64,000 nt of DNA from assembly GCA_934446675.1 (NCBI GenBank), contig CAKSEL010000007.1:445-64444 (forward strand). Reading direction: 5' to 3'. Positions 54,831-60,710 of this stretch are shown in pieces (within the stretch, counting starts at the first letter, position 1; each line of letters opens with the position of its first letter). The DNA is from an uncultured Eubacteriales bacterium (GTDB taxonomy: Bacteria > Bacillota > Clostridia > Oscillospirales > CAG-382). A program made the translations under genes and the position numbers. The notes under the pieces are model-generated. The model had not been told where the DNA came from. It did no database searches and was given only the letters and a program-made list of their open reading frames with translations.

Positions 54831-54982
54831 AAGTGAAGTATACGGAAACCGCAAAACTTGAATTGATAATTGTAAGGGCAGCCCGACATTAAACCCCGCT
54901 CGCTTTTCCTGCATAAAAACATGAGAGAATTTGTGTGTTTGTACTATAATTCCTTGTATCATTTAAGATAAGGAGAATGTAA

Positions 54983-56395
54983 ATGAAATTCAGAAAGCCA
55001 CTTGCTCTTCTGGCTGCTGCACTGATGCTTACCTGCATCGGCTGTAAAAAGTCGGAAACCCAAAAGAACAATACAGACGTTACTATTGATGAAAACGATC
55101 CGTATACTTCAAACCTTGAAATTAATAACTATGACGGCTACAATTTCCGCATGCTTGTACGTCCTTCGTGGATCAAAGACCAGTATCTCGAAGAAGGAAG
55201 CGGCGACCCGATTGAAGACGCTATTTACAAGAGAAACCTTATGGTTGAGGCGATGTACAATATTACAATAAGCGCCACGCCGTCATCTGACAGCAACTAT
55301 GAGACGGACGCGCTCAACTCGATCCTCGCGGGAGATGACGCATATGACGTAATCTACCCACATTCGAGAGCTGCGTTCTCTTATGCAACCCAGCACGCAC
55401 TTCTCAACATAAACGAGATCGACTCCATACATCTTGAAAACCCCTGGTGGGCAAAAGACATTGTTGAGAGTGCCGACATAAACGGCAACCTTTACGTGCT
55501 CGACGGAGATATTACTCTTGCAAGATACAAGAACGCCATGTGTCTGTACTTTAACAAGAGAATATTCGACGAACTCGGTCTCGACTATCCTTATCAGATG
55601 GTAAAAGACGGCACATGGACATTTGACGAATTCGCAAAGCTCGCCAAGAGCGGCGCAAAAGACCTCAACGGTGACGGAGTTATGGACGTTGAAAACGACC
55701 AGTACGGTTTTCAGACCGGCGAATGGCTGTCGCCGATAGCAATTCTCTACACCGGCGGTCAGAGAATTTACAACAAGAATGACGAGGGTATTCCGGAGCT
55801 TACGCTCAACACACCAAAGACTGTTGATATATTCGACAAGTACTTTGACCTTATGGATTCTACGGGAAACGTTATTTACGCTGATAATATAGTTACAGGT
55901 CCGGATATGTTCAGAGAAGGACGCGCAATGTTCAGTGACGGCGGTCTGAACAGCGCACAGGGTCTCAGAAGCATGGACGACAACTTCGGTATTCTTCCCT
56001 ATCCTAAGTTTACCGAAGATGATAAATACGCAAGCATAGTAAACGGCTCCGCGCACCTGCTCATCATTCCGCTTACTGTTTCGGACGCGCACAGAACCGG
56101 TAACATTATCGAGGCTCTCTGCGCAATAGGTTCGCGCGACGTTGTTCCCGCATTCTACGAACAGTCTCTTAAATCAAAGTTCAGCCGTGACAACGAGTCT
56201 GAAGAAATGATCGACATTATCAGAGACAGCATCATATACGATCTCGGCTATGTTGCCAACGGCACGTTTGATTCCATAGGACGCAATCTTGCGAGAAGCA
56301 CAACTCACGACTTTTCCTCCACATATGCCTCCCAGGAAGCTGTTGCACTTGCAGCGCTTAAAAATTTCAACAAGGCTTACGGAGAAATCGAATAA
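54983..56395 (+). CDS. ABC-transporter extracellular solute-binding lipoprotein (sugar-type), with no adjacent permease genes
   Basis: 470 aa. Lipoprotein-type signal MKFRKPLALLAAALMLTCIGCKK. Size and sequence style match family-1 sugar SBPs. Confidence 0.8.
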   Translation: MKFRKPLALLAAALMLTCIGCKKSETQKNNTDVTIDENDPYTSNLEINNYDGYNFRMLVRPSWIKDQYLEEGSGDPIEDAIYKRNLMVEAMYNITISATPSSDSNYETDALNSILAGDDAYDVIYPHSRAAFSYATQHALLNINEIDSIHLENPWWAKDIVESADINGNLYVLDGDITLARYKNAMCLYFNKRIFDELGLDYPYQMVKDGTWTFDEFAKLAKSGAKDLNGDGVMDVENDQYGFQTGEWLSPIAILYTGGQRIYNKNDEGIPELTLNTPKTVDIFDKYFDLMDSTGNVIYADNIVTGPDMFREGRAMFSDGGLNSAQGLRSMDDNFGILPYPKFTEDDKYASIVNGSAHLLIIPLTVSDAHRTGNIIEALCAIGSRDVVPAFYEQSLKSKFSRDNESEEMIDIIRDSIIYDLGYVANGTFDSIGRNLARSTTHDFSSTYASQEAVALAALKNFNKAYGEIE

Positions 56396-56424
56396 TCGGA
56401 TACCAATATTAATTTAAAACTTTG

Positions 56425-56447
56425 CCCGGTCTTTACGACCGGGTTTT
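56425..56447 (+). terminator. Rho-independent terminator
   Basis: CCCGGTC-tttac-GACCGGG followed by TTTTCTT. Confidence 0.7.
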
Positions 56448-56597
56448 CTTGTATAGAGAAAACCACGCGATAGTTGCGCGGTTCAAAAGGTTAACCGGTA
56501 AATCCCCCGTTTTACGGTTGATATTTATTGTATTATAAAAATTGTATTTAAGGTATAAATAAAATTGATTCAATGTATGAAAATATAATTTCGAGTA

Positions 56598-56626
56598 TTG
56601 ATAAACTTGAGCAAATATGATATAAT
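56598..56626 (+). promoter_or_regulatory. Consensus-like sigma-70 promoter
   Basis: TTGATA, 17-nt spacer, TATAAT. Confidence 0.5.
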
Positions 56627-56677
56627 AAATATGTTATACTAGCTTTTTTCTCAATAGTGAGAAAGGAGTCTATAGAT

Positions 56678-56752
56678 ATGTGGGAAACGCTATCGCAGGT
56701 TTTGGAGTACATAGATAGAATTACCGTAAAAACAACGCCGGATCAACGCTGA
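56678..56752 (+). CDS. 24-aa ORF downstream of a strong promoter (uncertain)
   Basis: MWETLSQVLEYIDRITVKTTPDQR with AAAGGAG 8 nt upstream. It could be a gene remnant or a leader peptide. Confidence 0.25.
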   Translation: MWETLSQVLEYIDRITVKTTPDQR

Positions 56753-56865
56753 AAGCCGTACAACAATTTGAAACAAAAACAATATAATAAAATGGTGTAG
56801 AAATGGTGTAAATCATTTTTCGCAAACGCCGAAACACCAGTAAAATCAAGGAGATGTAACATAAA

Positions 56866-57960
56866 ATGAAACTAGGTATAGTAGGACTTCCGAACGTCGG
56901 AAAAAGCACGCTTTTCAACGCAATAACAAACGCAGGCGCGGACGCAGCAAACTACCCGTTCTGCACGATAGATCCGAACGTCGGCATTGCTCCCGTACCG
57001 GACAAGCGCCTTGACGTGCTTGCGGAAATGTATCACCCCGAAAAATACACGCCCGCCGTAATCGAATTCGTAGACATCGCAGGTCTTGTAAAAGGCGCGT
57101 CTAAGGGCGAGGGCTTGGGCAACAAGTTCCTTTCGCACATAAGAGAGGTTGACGCGGTGGTTCACGTTGTACGCTGCTTTGAAAACGACGACATAATCCA
57201 CGTAAACGGTCACATTGACCCGGCAGACGACGTAAACACCATAAATCTTGAGCTTATTTATTCGGATATCGAGATAGTCGAACGCAGACTTGACCGCGCA
57301 AAAAAACTTCTCAAGGGCGACAAGTCCGCGCAAAAGGAAATTGACCTGCTTGAAAAGATCCTTGAGGTGCTCAATTCCGGCAAAAAGGCAAGCTCGCTCG
57401 AATACACAAAGGACGAGCTTGAAATATTGAAGGAGGTTCCGCTGCTTTCGATGAAACCCGTAATCTACGTTGCAAACATCAACGAGGACGAGGTCGGCAC
57501 GGATCTTACCAAAAATCCCTACTACATGAGCTTAAAGGCTATCGCCGACGAAGAACATTCCGGAATTATCAGCATATGCGCCGGAATAGAGGCGGAGATC
57601 AGCGAGCTTGAGCCTGAAGAAAAGAAAGCTTTTCTCAACGATCTCGGCATAGAAAACAGCGGTCTTGACGTGCTTGTTTCTGCGTGCTACGAGCTTCTCG
57701 GACTTATAAGCTTTCTTACCGCAGGACCGCAGGAAGTCCGCGCATGGACAATAGAAAAGGGCACAAAAGCTCCTCAGGCGGCAGGTAAAATACATTCAGA
57801 CTTTGAACGCGGCTTTATACGCGCGGAGGTCGTTTCGTTTGACGATCTTGTTGCGTGCGGCTCTACCGCTGCGGCAAAAGAAAAAGGTCTTATGCGTTCC
57901 GAAGGCAAGGAATATGTCATGAAAGACGGAGACGTAGTTCTGTTCAGATTCAACGTCTGA
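56866..57960 (+). CDS. ychF: Redox-regulated ribosome-binding ATPase YchF
   Basis: 364 aa. [20 protein letters not shown]-loop, [10 protein letters not shown], and the conserved C-terminal TGS-like region [18 protein letters not shown]. Confidence 0.95.
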
Positions 57961-58007
57961 TTTTGTCGTTTTTTGTCCCGGATTGTCGTCCGCACGTCCT
58001 TTTTGTG

Positions 58008-58037
58008 TAAGTTGTGCCGCTATTTGTGTTAGTTGTG
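58008..58037 (+). promoter_or_regulatory. Pair of 9-bp direct repeats with a 12-bp spacer (LytTR/AgrA-type site architecture)
   Basis: TAAGTTGTG (58008-58016), 12 nt, TTAGTTGTG (58029-58037). AGTTGTGCC is identical in both copies, with a 21-bp period. A TATAAT lies at 58068-58073, 30 bp downstream. Confidence 0.5.
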
Positions 58038-58112
58038 CCAAAGGCCGCACAAATGAGTTTTCGGGTGTATAATGTATACATCAAATGAAAACAAAAAAGG
58101 AGGACACAAGAA

Positions 58113-58244
58113 ATGTTTGAACTTATAAGCAGCCTTCTCACAGGCGCAGCTTACGACGCAGCAATCGATTCCGTAGGTCTTGCATCATGCAACGGTCTTT
58201 ACGAAATGAAGATGCCCGAAGCTCTCAACGAAATCGCAAAGTAA
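58113..58244 (+). CDS. agrD: AgrD-like cyclic-lactone autoinducing peptide precursor (43 aa; absent from the ORF track)
   Basis: MFELISSLLTGAAYDAAIDSVGLASCNGLYEMKMPEALNEIAK. AGGAGG lies 9 nt upstream. It has a hydrophobic/amphipathic leader, a single Cys plus 4 residues, then a charged tail with the P-E-x-L motif typical of AgrD. It has its own terminator. Confidence 0.65.
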   Translation: MFELISSLLTGAAYDAAIDSVGLASCNGLYEMKMPEALNEIAK

Positions 58245-58270
58245 GTTTTTTTCAAAGCTTAAAATGCGTA

Positions 58271-58305
58271 AAAGGCGGTACTTTTCGTGCCGCCCTTTCT
58301 TTTTG
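58271..58305 (+). terminator. Rho-independent terminator
   Basis: AAAGGCGGTAC / GTGCCGCCCTTT stem (one G-U pair) followed by CTTTTT. Confidence 0.7.
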
Positions 58306-58529
58306 CCGTTTTGCGGAAAAAAGTGTCTTAATTTATAAAAATTACCTTAAATAACTTTTGGCTTTATGCAAACAATAATAGCGTAGTCACGGGAAAGACA
58401 AAAGCGCGGTGCGACCGGCACGGCTTTATCAAAAGTTTTTTCACGCGGCTAAAAAACAAAAGCCGCAAACGGTGTTTATACAAAATGCCGGCGCGCGGCA
58501 AAAAAGTAATTTTTAAGGAGAAATTGATT

Positions 58530-58727
58530 ATGAATAGCAAGAGACTCGTTCCCGAAGCAAAGGAAGCAATGGATAAGTTCAAGATGGAAGCAGCAAACGA
58601 AGTAGGCGTTAACCTCAAGCAGGGTTACAACGGCGACCTCACCTCCAAGCAGGCAGGTTCCGTAGGCGGTCAGATGGTTAAGAAAATGATCCAGAACGCC
58701 GAGAACGCAATGAAGAACAACGGCTAA
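58530..58727 (+). CDS. Small acid-soluble spore protein, alpha/beta type
   Basis: 65 aa from MNSKRLVPEAKEAMDKFKMEAANEVGV...SKQAGSVGGQMVKKMI, the canonical alpha/beta SASP sequence. AAGGAG RBS. Confidence 0.9.
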   Translation: MNSKRLVPEAKEAMDKFKMEAANEVGVNLKQGYNGDLTSKQAGSVGGQMVKKMIQNAENAMKNNG

Positions 58728-58756
58728 TCACAACCCTTAATCAAAAGCTATACCAC

Positions 58757-58790
58757 GGCGCGGCGGTTAATTCCGCCGCGCTTATTATTT
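58757..58790 (+). terminator. Rho-independent terminator
   Basis: GCGCGGCGG-ttaatt-CCGCCGCGC followed by TTATTATTT. Confidence 0.75.
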
Positions 58791-58850
58791 ACCACGTTTA
58801 AAAATCTATTCCGTACATATTCCTCTCTCCCGTATTTTTGATTTTTACTG

Positions 58851-58879
58851 TTGACAAGCGGATTTTGCAATGTTACAAT
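58851..58879 (+). promoter_or_regulatory. Consensus sigma-70 promoter
   Basis: TTGACA, 17-nt spacer ending in TGT, TACAAT. Confidence 0.65.
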
Positions 58880-58909
58880 TCAATAAAATCAAAGACGCAG
58901 GAGGACAGC

Positions 58910-60631
58910 ATGGACATCAGAAACGTAAGAAACGGAGATCCCATTCCCGTAATGAATTACAGCGATCAGCCGTATGTTGTAAAGACAAACGACGGCGGCT
59001 GGCTCATGGCCGTAACGACCGGAATCGGCGAAGAAGGCAGCCGAGGGCAGCACATAACGTCCGCAAAGAGCTTTGACTGCGGAAAAACATGGTCTGAGCC
59101 TGTATGCGTGGAGTCTCCCGACAGTCCCGAATCGTCATATGCCGTGCTTTACAGGACGGACTTCGGCAGAATATACTGCTTTTACAATTACAACGCCGAA
59201 AACAGGCGGTTTGTCCTGTCCGATCCCGGAACGCTGAACGGCGGCAAAAGCTTCCGCGTGGATTCGCAGGGCTCTTTCGTATACAAATACACCGACGACA
59301 ACGGTCTTACATGGTCTGACAGGCGGTACGACATTCCCATGCGTATCTTCGACGTTGACAGAAACAATCCTTACGGCGGAAAAGTCCTTTACTTCTGGAA
59401 CGTCGGCAAGCCTTTTACGCTAAAAAACAGCGTATATGTTCCATTATACAAAATAGGCGGACTCAAAAATACGTTTATGTACAACACAGAGGGCGTGCTT
59501 TTGAAATGCGATAACATAAACTCTGAAAAGGACGCGTCAAAACTGCACTGGGAGACGCTCCCCGACGGTGAAAACGGCATAAAAGTCCCGAGAGAGATAA
59601 GCGAGATATCCGAGGAGCACAGCTTTGTAACTTTAAGCGACGGCAGCATTTTCTGCGTATTCCGAACCGTGTCAGGCAACCCTTACTGTTCTTACAGCCG
59701 CGACGGAGGACACACCTTCAGCCCTCCCGAAAAAATGACCTATGCCGACGGCAGGGCAATGCGCCACCCGCGGGCCGCAAATTTCATATGGAAATGCAGC
59801 AACGGCAAATACCTGTACTGGTATCACAACCACGGCGGCAAAGGCTACGACGACAGAAACCCCGTATGGATCTCCGGAGCTGTCGAATATGAGGCGTCCG
59901 ACGGCATACGTCTGAAATTTTCCCAGCCGGAAATTCTGCTGTACGACAAAGACGTTATGATACGCATGAGCTATCCCGACATGATAGAACAAAACGGAGA
60001 ATACTACTTTACCGAAACGCAGAAGAACGTTGCAAGAACGCACCGCGCAGATAAATCCCTGATAGAGGGATTATGGAGTCAGTTTGACGCGGACAGCGCC
60101 GTAAAAACACACGCAACGGTACTTAAAAACGGAGACGCAATGCCGGCTCTATCACCGTTTATCGAGCGTGACTTATCGTATACAGACAGCCGTTCAAAGG
60201 ACGTCTGCAAAGGCTTCAGCATCTGCATTGACGCGGAGCTTGACAAAAGCGGCGTGCTGTTTTCGACGTTTGATAATGAGCGCAGGGGCATGAACGCGGT
60301 TTTCGACGGTGAAAAGATAGTTTTCACCATGAGCGACGCAAGGCGTACCTGCTGTTTTTATTCGGACAAACAGCCGCTGTCGGCAAAAGGACGGCACAAG
60401 ATAACAATTCAGGTTGACGCAGGTCCGAGAATAGTGTCCATGATTACGGACGGCAGGCTCTGCGACGGCGCAGATGAACGTCAGTTCGGCTACGGCTGGT
60501 TTGACCGCGGCATGATAAGCGCAAACGGTGCAAAAAACATCTTTATTTCCGACAGCGTAAAGTCGTTTGAGCTGTTTACGGAAATGCTCACAAACTCGCA
60601 AGCCTGCATACTCCAAAACAAGCATGGTTAA
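58910..60631 (+). CDS. BNR/Asp-box repeat glycosidase of the sialidase fold, with a C-terminal LamG/concanavalin-like domain
   Basis: Start at MDIRNVRNGD (AGGAGG 7 nt upstream). Asp-boxes SFDCGKTWS, TDDNGLTWS, SRDGGHTFS. No signal peptide. Confidence 0.75.
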   Translation: MDIRNVRNGDPIPVMNYSDQPYVVKTNDGGWLMAVTTGIGEEGSRGQHITSAKSFDCGKTWSEPVCVESPDSPESSYAVLYRTDFGRIYCFYNYNAENRRFVLSDPGTLNGGKSFRVDSQGSFVYKYTDDNGLTWSDRRYDIPMRIFDVDRNNPYGGKVLYFWNVGKPFTLKNSVYVPLYKIGGLKNTFMYNTEGVLLKCDNINSEKDASKLHWETLPDGENGIKVPREISEISEEHSFVTLSDGSIFCVFRTVSGNPYCSYSRDGGHTFSPPEKMTYADGRAMRHPRAANFIWKCSNGKYLYWYHNHGGKGYDDRNPVWISGAVEYEASDGIRLKFSQPEILLYDKDVMIRMSYPDMIEQNGEYYFTETQKNVARTHRADKSLIEGLWSQFDADSAVKTHATVLKNGDAMPALSPFIERDLSYTDSRSKDVCKGFSICIDAELDKSGVLFSTFDNERRGMNAVFDGEKIVFTMSDARRTCCFYSDKQPLSAKGRHKITIQVDAGPRIVSMITDGRLCDGADERQFGYGWFDRGMISANGAKNIFISDSVKSFELFTEMLTNSQACILQNKHG

Positions 60632-60672
60632 ACCCGTTATACATCAAAATTATTTCAAAATAGCATAAAAAT

Positions 60673-60710
60673 GCGCGGCGGTTTGATTTTCCGCCGCGTT
60701 TACTGTTTTA
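60673..60710. terminator. Bidirectional terminator between convergent genes
   Basis: CGCGGCGG-tttgatttt-CCGCCGCG with A/T-rich runs on both sides. Confidence 0.7.

Follow-up and report, generated by a model that had tools for sequence, protein, structure and literature searches.

A solitary agrD gene behind a putative activator box, a probable part of a dispersed agr-type quorum-sensing system in a gut Clostridiales bacterium

In the agrBDCA system of Staphylococcus aureus, AgrB releases a 14-residue tail from the precursor of the autoinducing peptide (AIP), the rings of AIPs normally comprise five residues, and a LytTR regulator has been described to bind the promoter for autoinduction (PMC12312760). 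Lactones closed through serine are also known, and include RIPT[STGFF] of S. pseudintermedius, NSA[SSWVA] of C. difficile agr2, and GBAP of E. faecalis (PMC12312760). Fragmented agr loci occur in clostridia, either as agrBD without agrCA or as agrBD and agrCA in separate operons (PMC12312760). RgaS-RgaR, a LytTR two-component system whose genes are not linked to agrB1D1, activates the Agr1 system of C. difficile (PMC10602386), and C. autoethanogenum has an agrD2-agrC2 pair without agrB, for which processing in trans by the single AgrB1 has been proposed (PMC8748961). The subject of this analysis is a 64,000-nucleotide stretch of DNA from an uncultured Eubacteriales bacterium (contig CAKSEL010000007.1, positions 445 to 64,444 of the forward strand), referred to as the window. 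An earlier reading of its letters (the original prediction) had singled out an orphan AgrD-like gene preceded by LytTR-type repeats. The segment 57999-58304 of the window probably forms a transcription unit in its own right for agrD, and the agr-type quorum-sensing system to which it would belong has its genes dispersed in this species. The unit has the following elements:

57999-58018 and 58020-58039, forward strand: pair of direct repeats of 20 nt each, 18/20 identical, with a period of 21
58004-58018 and 58025-58039, forward strand: repeat cores, TGTGTAAGTTGTGCC and TGTGTTAGTTGTGCC
58008-58016 and 58029-58037, forward strand: 9-mers of the original prediction, TAAGTTGTG and TTAGTTGTG, with 12 bp between them
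58068-58073, forward strand: -10 hexamer TATAAT, 28 nt downstream of the proximal box, read from the sequence
58085-58120, forward strand: leader mini-ORF (open reading frame) MKTKKEDTRNV*, overlapping the start of agrD
58098-58103, forward strand: Shine-Dalgarno sequence AGGAGG, 9 nt 5' of the ATG, read from the sequence
58113-58244, forward strand: agrD ORF of 43 amino acids, MFELISSLLTGAAYDAAIDSVGLASCNGLYEMKMPEALNEIAK, predicted precursor of an autoinducing peptide
58113-58184, forward strand: leader part of agrD, residues 1-24
58185-58199, forward strand: predicted ring S25-C26-N27-G28-L29, placed by family column statistics and tail count
58200-58241, forward strand: C-terminal recognition tail Y30-K43, including P35 and L38
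58274-58304, forward strand: intrinsic terminator GGCGGTAC-TTTTC-GTGCCGCC followed by CTTTCTTTTT, from a terminator scan and folding

The original prediction had placed the ORF, its ribosome-binding site, the terminator, the direct repeats, and the -10 box where they are listed here. The G+C-rich stem-loop of the terminator (58274-58294) has a folding energy of -18.7 kcal/mol (z = -2.9 relative to shuffles), and the T-run CTTTCTTTTT lies directly 3' of it. The predicted agrD unit is monocistronic, about 225 nt long, and closed by this terminator of its own. Gene calls of the ORF exist in about 255 contigs from metagenomes or genomes, all of them from human-gut assemblies and from one species, and its cluster at 90% identity comprises eight variants. 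The location between ychF and a SASP gene, pointed out in the earlier reading, is the same throughout these contigs. The ORF is intact in the approximately 255 contigs, and the repeats are kept across the family of loci described below.

Like the precursor of S. aureus, the predicted AgrD of the window is small and consists of a leader, a ring region with a five-residue ring, and a charged tail of 14 residues that AgrB would remove. Unlike its staphylococcal counterpart, the window agrD is a predicted single-gene unit without linkage to agrB, agrC, or agrA; serine takes the place of cysteine as the conserved nucleophile of its family, no RNAIII-like partner was seen, and the staphylococcal AgrD model of Pfam does not match the peptide. 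The separation of the genes for signal production from those of the kinase and regulator resembles Agr1 of C. difficile. However, agrB1 and agrD1 remain in one operon, whereas the two genes are separated in the window species and each has a repeat box of its own. The absence of an adjacent agrB is shared with agrD2 of C. autoethanogenum. By contrast, agrD2 has a kinase gene as its partner and agrD1 stays with AgrB1, whereas both genes of the window species are solitary and behind one type of promoter.

The assignment of the peptide to AgrD is derived from a family of small proteins. A first, word-indexed homology search returned the species' own cluster only, whereas an exhaustive phmmer search gave 139 matches (E-values up to 1e-3) of two kinds. 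The majority are large repeat proteins of the BspA-type leucine-rich-repeat (LRR) kind, which match residues ~17-42 of the peptide. The second kind comprises five small proteins that align end to end with 55-62% identity. These small proteins served to build a profile, which recovered 102 sequences, nearly all 42-61 amino acids long and all but one with an E-value of at most 2.4e-10. The pattern of the family is MFxW[IL]SxLFAGAAxDxAIYSAGLAS-x-x-G-[ML]-[HY]-Q-M-K-E-P-E-x-L. A leave-one-out hidden Markov model (HMM) of the 94 members from other species matches residues 1-43 of the window peptide with 70 bits and an E-value of 9e-15, scaled to a search space of 1.8 billion sequences. The profile TIGR04223 (quorum_AgrD) matches 30 of the 95 members (E <= 1; best 3.6e-5), so that the window peptide and two thirds of its family lie below its detection, and none of the 95 homologues matches the AgrD family of Pfam. 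One member, P0234, is annotated by NCBI as a cyclic lactone autoinducer peptide.

The genomic context of the family agrees with this assignment. The genes of all five members that were looked up (P0234, P0184, P0241, P0167, and P0161) are located directly 3' of an AgrB gene (PF04647), often overlapping it, and a LytTR response regulator and a HATPase_c_5 kinase are encoded upstream of each of the five agrB-agrD pairs. The canonical gene order of the family is agrA-agrC-[promoter]-agrB-agrD. In all fetched loci, a complete family agrB with enough 3' sequence is followed by a family agrD, the sole exception being the window species; conversely, the agrD genes of the window species are the only ones among the surveyed loci that do not adjoin agrB. 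At two of the loci, agrD is present although it was missed by the automated screen: it has a GTG start in L022, and it is fused to agrB in L035. The fusion (L035 7488-8231) forms one ORF of 247 residues in one variant of a mobile element, and it presumably arose by a frameshift at the overlap of the two genes. The AgrD-like identity put forward in the original prediction is thus upheld by the family HMM and the agrB context, without a match to a curated profile.

The architecture of the 43-residue peptide is that of an AgrD precursor, with Ser25 five residues ahead of a 14-residue tail that starts at the predicted cleavage site and contains five charged residues. Within the tail, P35 is invariant and L38 near-invariant across the family. 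The amphipathic leader that had been described finds support only in residues 1-11, for which the hydrophobic moment was reached by 10 of 2000 shuffles; however, the moments of residues 1-18 and 1-20 are not significant. Comparison of the window agrD with its relatives gave dN of 0.27-0.47 with saturated dS, and therefore dN/dS is not computable. The window peptide belongs to a divergent branch of AgrD that is mostly missed by annotation pipelines. No paper was retrieved when the literature was searched for the motif of the family (HQMKEP and variants).

The ring of the predicted peptide had been read as the thiolactone CNGLY, formed by a cysteine and the four residues that follow it. This register is probably off by one, since Ser25 is present in 95 of the 95 family members and Cys26 in two of them. 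Residues S20, A24, S25, G28, and P35 are invariant among the 95 members, whereas column 26 is the most variable one (G19 N18 S13 H12 A10 T9 Y6 I5 C2). Position 27 is variable as well, and hypervariability of ring positions 26-27 is as expected for residues that determine specificity. Counting 14 residues back from the C-terminus puts the cleavage after L29, which gives the ring S25-C-N-G-L29, and the invariance of Ser25 together with the position of Cys26 in the most variable column points to a lactone. The thiolactone CNGLY would require a 13-residue tail and a nucleophile that is absent from the family. The ring is therefore probably a Ser25 lactone S25-C-N-G-L29 followed by a 14-residue tail. 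The substitution of serine for cysteine as the ring-forming residue is shared with the serine lactones mentioned above; the predicted rings of the family, S-x-x-G-[M/L], are small and contain glycine, and the window species would add a cysteine beside the serine. The same ASCNG sequence is present in the peptide of L051.

The promoter of the unit resembles those of agrB genes of the family. Sites of LytTR regulators consist of 9-bp repeats with a 12-bp spacer. Such repeats had been recognized 12 bp apart in the window, with the second copy ending 30 bp before TATAAT; this layout is correct, but the actual repeat is longer and spans two copies of 20 nt. The 15-mer core TGTGTWAGTTGTGCC occurs in the 64 kb only at these two sites, and 0.15 matches with at most two mismatches are expected by chance. 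The box pair of the window and the one that precedes agrB in L017 agree at 40/42 positions (blastn E 2e-14), even though the agrD coding DNA of L017 is not detectably alignable with the window. In nearly all sampled loci of the family, agrB is preceded by a repeat pair of 20-21 bp period and, ~28 nt after the pair, by a -10 hexamer, and in an alignment of six loci the invariant columns are concentrated in the two boxes and the -10. The proposed LytTR type of the repeats is corroborated by the presence of the same box with a 21-bp period before agrB across the family, beside genes for LytTR regulators. The match of box and spacing to the agrB promoters of the family indicates that an activator-dependent promoter of the agrB type directly precedes agrD in the window. 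A generic sigma-70 scan called no promoter at TATAAT 58068-58073; the lack of a good -35 is as expected for a promoter that depends on an activator.

The segment 57999-58039 is read as a predicted activator box of the AgrA/LytTR type in a P2-like promoter. Comparable sites have been described in clostridia. The VirR motif is CCAnTT(n15)CCAGTT(n3)Cac (PMC4963840), and it has the 21-bp period and the AGTT core in common with TAAGTTGTGCC. The direct repeats through which RgaR activates agrB1D1 of C. difficile are VirR-like, with critical G-51 and G-72 located 21 bp apart (PMC10602386). A hairpin at 58033-58052 that overlaps the second box is probably incidental, as it is not conserved in the copy of the promoter that precedes agrB.

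A second copy of the box in the same species precedes a solitary agrB. A scan for the box pair in 185,579 species genomes yielded four loci, two of which belong to UMGS1387, the reference genome of the species ("uncultured Clostridiales bacterium"). One of them, L023, contains agrD; its contig is that of L001, and its identity with the window is ~97%. The other, L020, is on another contig, where the box pair and a TATAAT at 28 nt are followed by agrB:

L020 3268-2684, reverse strand: solitary agrB, 195 amino acids, PF04647 match with E 8e-37

The solitary AgrB keeps the family-invariant motif GGFH...LC, which is taken here to hold the catalytic histidine and cysteine of AgrB, and its gene is followed by a terminator. 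No agrD was found after this agrB in L020 by tblastn and HMM screens. The 3' end of the gene (L020 2681-2720) encodes the terminus ...YNGKCAENN*, having lost the K-K-G-G-K codons (AAGGGAGGA). These codons form the Shine-Dalgarno sequence of agrD in linked loci, and their loss fits the absence of a downstream agrD. A metagenome scan with the solitary AgrB as query gave one locus, on a contig that encodes an identical protein and has no agrA, agrC, or agrD within 10 kb of agrB, and a sub-lineage with a 93%-identical AgrB has the same solitary arrangement. The AgrB cluster is present in at least 165 contigs. The two other loci of the box-pair scan are L021 (equivalent to L015), with a 6-kb insertion between agrAC and agrBD, and L022, which is canonical. 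The second box before an intact solitary agrB indicates that the species has split agrB and agrD, each with a box promoter of its own. The two genes are not co-located, since the 64-kb window contains no AgrB gene and the agrB of the genome is on another contig. The original prediction had left a choice between a peptide served in trans and one that is processed differently; the presence of AgrB in UMGS1387, encoded by an intact gene behind the same box on another contig, favours the former.

Patterns of variation argue, without amounting to proof, that the boxes are still bound by protein and that selection still acts on the peptide. Within one genome, the two copies of the promoter are identical at 38/41 positions of the boxes, compared with 13/28 (46%) in the spacer. 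Between two sub-lineages, both of which already have the split arrangement of agrB and agrD, the agrB promoter from the boxes to the -10 differs at 1 of 72 columns, while the non-coding DNA flanking agrB has 83/372 differences; the promoter is thus ~16 times less variable (Fisher p = 2e-6). At the agrD locus, sequences of 14 strains have 0/75 variable sites from the boxes to the -10 and 19/285 in the downstream non-coding DNA (p = 0.018). The agrD ORF has 2/132 variable sites among the same strains, one of them synonymous and the other resulting in S6G, at a position that is also variable across the family. From the boxes to the end of the ORF, 3/246 sites vary, compared with the 19/285 downstream (p = 0.002). 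The low variation of both promoter and ORF suggests that the split system is maintained.

A mechanism can be proposed on the basis of these features. A phosphorylated LytTR regulator of the AgrA type would bind the two boxes spaced by 21 bp and activate the -10 promoter 28 nt downstream. The short mRNA would be translated into the 43-residue AgrD precursor, and processing would be carried out in trans by the solitary AgrB, encoded elsewhere behind the same boxes. AgrB would remove the 14-residue tail (YEMKMPEALNEIAK) and close the new C-terminus, L29, onto Ser25 to give the lactone [SCNGL] with a short N-terminal tail. The exported peptide would be sensed by a kinase of the AgrC type, which would re-activate AgrA, so that agrD and agrB would be co-induced in a positive feedback loop despite being unlinked. 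The AgrA/AgrC pair of this scheme is a presumed component of the species. A more specific version is somewhat easier to accept than to doubt: the circuit would be fully dispersed, with agrD and agrB as single-gene units that share an AgrA-type box and the sensor pair elsewhere, and the signal would be a serine lactone from a hitherto undescribed AgrD branch. This branch would be characterized by A-S-x-x-G-M/L followed by H/Y-Q-M-K-E-P and would have a wide distribution among gut Clostridia and conjugative elements; in the window species it would have a free or alternatively cyclizing cysteine beside the serine of the ring. New relative to the described systems would be the complete separation of agrD from agrB, the presence of a duplicated activator box in front of each of the two genes, and the serine-type branch of AgrD.

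Several observations weigh against an active agr unit. The window peptide has no match in Pfam or NCBIfam at E-values up to 10, and misses both TIGR04223 and the AgrD family of Pfam (PF05931); the original prediction had named the lack of such a hit as evidence against itself, and this lack is outweighed by the evidence from the family. Near-invariant sites of the family are changed in the window peptide (W4L, Q31E, E34M, and Y19D), and two of the changes, E34M and Y19D, are unique to it within the family. Identity between the species' AgrB and the seven other AgrBs of the family in the alignment is 36-45%. Both the substitutions and the divergence of AgrB are consistent with co-evolution of peptide and peptidase, but also with relaxed constraint. 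Cys26 could act as the nucleophile in the window species instead of its neighbour, resulting in a thiolactone. Finally, neither agrA nor agrC turned up in the 64-kb window, at distances of up to 10 kb from agrD in eight strains, or at such distances from agrB. In agreement with the original prediction, which had noted the lack of agrB, agrC, and agrA, a tblastn search with 19 AgrA, AgrB, and AgrC proteins of the family found nothing in the window (best E 0.12), not even a receiver domain. Among the best 120 of the 451 matches of an AgrC profile search, none is assigned to the window species. The abundant AgrC candidates P0368 and P0343 were rejected because each is part of an entire agr cassette that is carried by mobile elements in other organisms.

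These points would also be accounted for if the unit were a decaying relic, in which an agrBD operon fell apart, the genes for kinase and regulator disappeared, and the solitary agrD, and perhaps agrB, are non-functional leftovers. No agrA or agrC is present in any DNA of the species that was examined, the peptide has its unique substitutions, no other AgrB in the alignment is as divergent, and the agrD locus lies within strain-variable DNA. However, the canonical loci have agrAC without a box and separable from agrBD, as in L015, so that the absence of agrAC near agrB or agrD is uninformative and not finding these genes is weak evidence that they are absent. Decay is also at odds with the intact ORF, Shine-Dalgarno sequence, terminator, and boxes in the approximately 255 contigs and of agrB in at least 165, and with the retention of six out of six family-invariant residues in the peptide. 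Two loci have retained the boxes, whereas the spacer that separates box and -10 is down to 46% identity, the agrB promoter is much less variable than its flanks (p = 2e-6), and agrD with its promoter varies less than the non-coding DNA beside it (p = 0.002). A relic is therefore considered unlikely, although it is the most serious of the alternatives.

A role outside quorum sensing has a very low probability. The peptide could be another small protein that merely resembles AgrD, such as a membrane peptide or one with a part in sporulation, encoded beside the SASP gene; the SASP gene adjoins it in all strains, and curated AgrD profiles do not match it. However, its homology is full-length and to peptides that always follow agrB, its promoter is the box promoter of agrB genes, and its own terminator argues against co-transcription with the SASP gene. 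Hardly any weight is left for a chance ORF or a fragment of a surface protein with BspA-type leucine-rich repeats. Most of the 139 phmmer matches are large multi-repeat proteins, such as P0013 with the repeats ASCKRLTEISLPENLNSIG, and residues 17-42 (window 58161-58238) resemble one repeat unit, C..L..i.lPe.l..I. The likeness is limited to this single unit and hinges on the Cys26 specific to the window, which the family lacks, and the LRR_5 model of Pfam does not match the peptide. By contrast, the ORF is completely explained by the family of small proteins, the agrB linkage, and the dedicated promoter and terminator. The fragment explanation was rejected, since it is contradicted by the data on family and context, and the resemblance was judged convergent. 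An agrD unit of a dispersed agr system is thus the preferred reading of segment 57999-58304.

The leader of the agrD unit resembles the junction of agrB and agrD in linked loci. Positions 58085-58186 of the window align with the 3' end of agrB and the 5' end of agrD in L015 (69% identity, blastn E 2.7e-4), and in linked loci the 3' end of agrB carries the Shine-Dalgarno sequence of agrD, which the window leader resembles. On this weak evidence, the leader at 58085-58120 may be a scar of a deleted agrB. The scar is not relied on here, because constraints on the Shine-Dalgarno sequence and the N-terminus of agrD could by themselves produce the similarity. In 20 contigs, a gene of 52 residues was called from the upstream ATG of this leader (protein P0003, MKTKKEDKKMFELIG...), which indicates an indel in the leader of some strains.

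The core ychF-agrD-SASP (window 54900-60700; L001-L008) is embedded in DNA that varies among strains. A phage-type integrase or a ParE toxin is encoded upstream of it in some strains; downstream there is, depending on the strain, an RNase III gene or an ORF of 597 residues similar to BNR/sialidase proteins (window 58838-60631). The SASP gene of the window (58530-58727) is 83% identical over 89 nt to the SASP gene that adjoins agrA in L015 (707-904), where it has the opposite orientation. This likeness could be a vestige of ancestral linkage, or plain conservation of SASP genes. Synteny through YchF was of no help, as the 90%-identical YchF of another metagenome-assembled genome (P0246) is in an unrelated context. 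An Rfam scan of 57600-58900 gave sub-threshold noise only, and a profile search of the PDB found no AgrD chain.

Related loci vary in their organization. Complete agrA-agrC-[box]-agrB-agrD cassettes are located inside integrative or mobilizable elements in L024-L036 and L039-L048 (for example L024 9273-12229); they encode an AgrD of 53 residues, have boxes of the type TGCGTCAACTGTCAC, and are followed by genes for surface proteins with SLH domains. The elements are marked by relaxase, MobC, ArdA, TTRAP, and a tyrosine integrase, and the cassette of L017 adjoins genes for a type IV secretion system, RepA_N, and a resolvase. Quorum-sensing modules appear to be mobile in gut Clostridia. Another pair of boxes, inverted and ~170 nt upstream of the agrB box, is present at L015 9115-9151 (also L021 2257-2292). 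It faces a divergent cluster of small genes and may be a P3-like divergent target promoter. Two agr modules are arranged in tandem in L009 (4256-10156); the first encodes a different peptide of 61 residues (MMGLFSSFFAGFASYLEDIYLDSYGFASKSAAYEPEM...), with an A-S motif before a YEPE tail, and two LRR_5/Cu_amine_oxidN1 proteins are encoded downstream of the modules.

Searches for AgrD usually start from adjacency to agrB or from curated AgrD profiles. The agrD of the window has neither and is shorter than common cut-offs of ORF length, which implies that signals of this type are systematically missed in uncultured gut Clostridia. The common box provides a simple DNA pattern for finding the regulon in metagenome-assembled genomes, and the AgrD branch is a candidate source of many uncharacterized lactone signals in the human gut. 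The arrangement in the window species would extend the known range of fragmented clostridial agr loci, and it suggests that agrD and agrB can separate completely and yet remain one regulatory unit by means of duplicated activator boxes.

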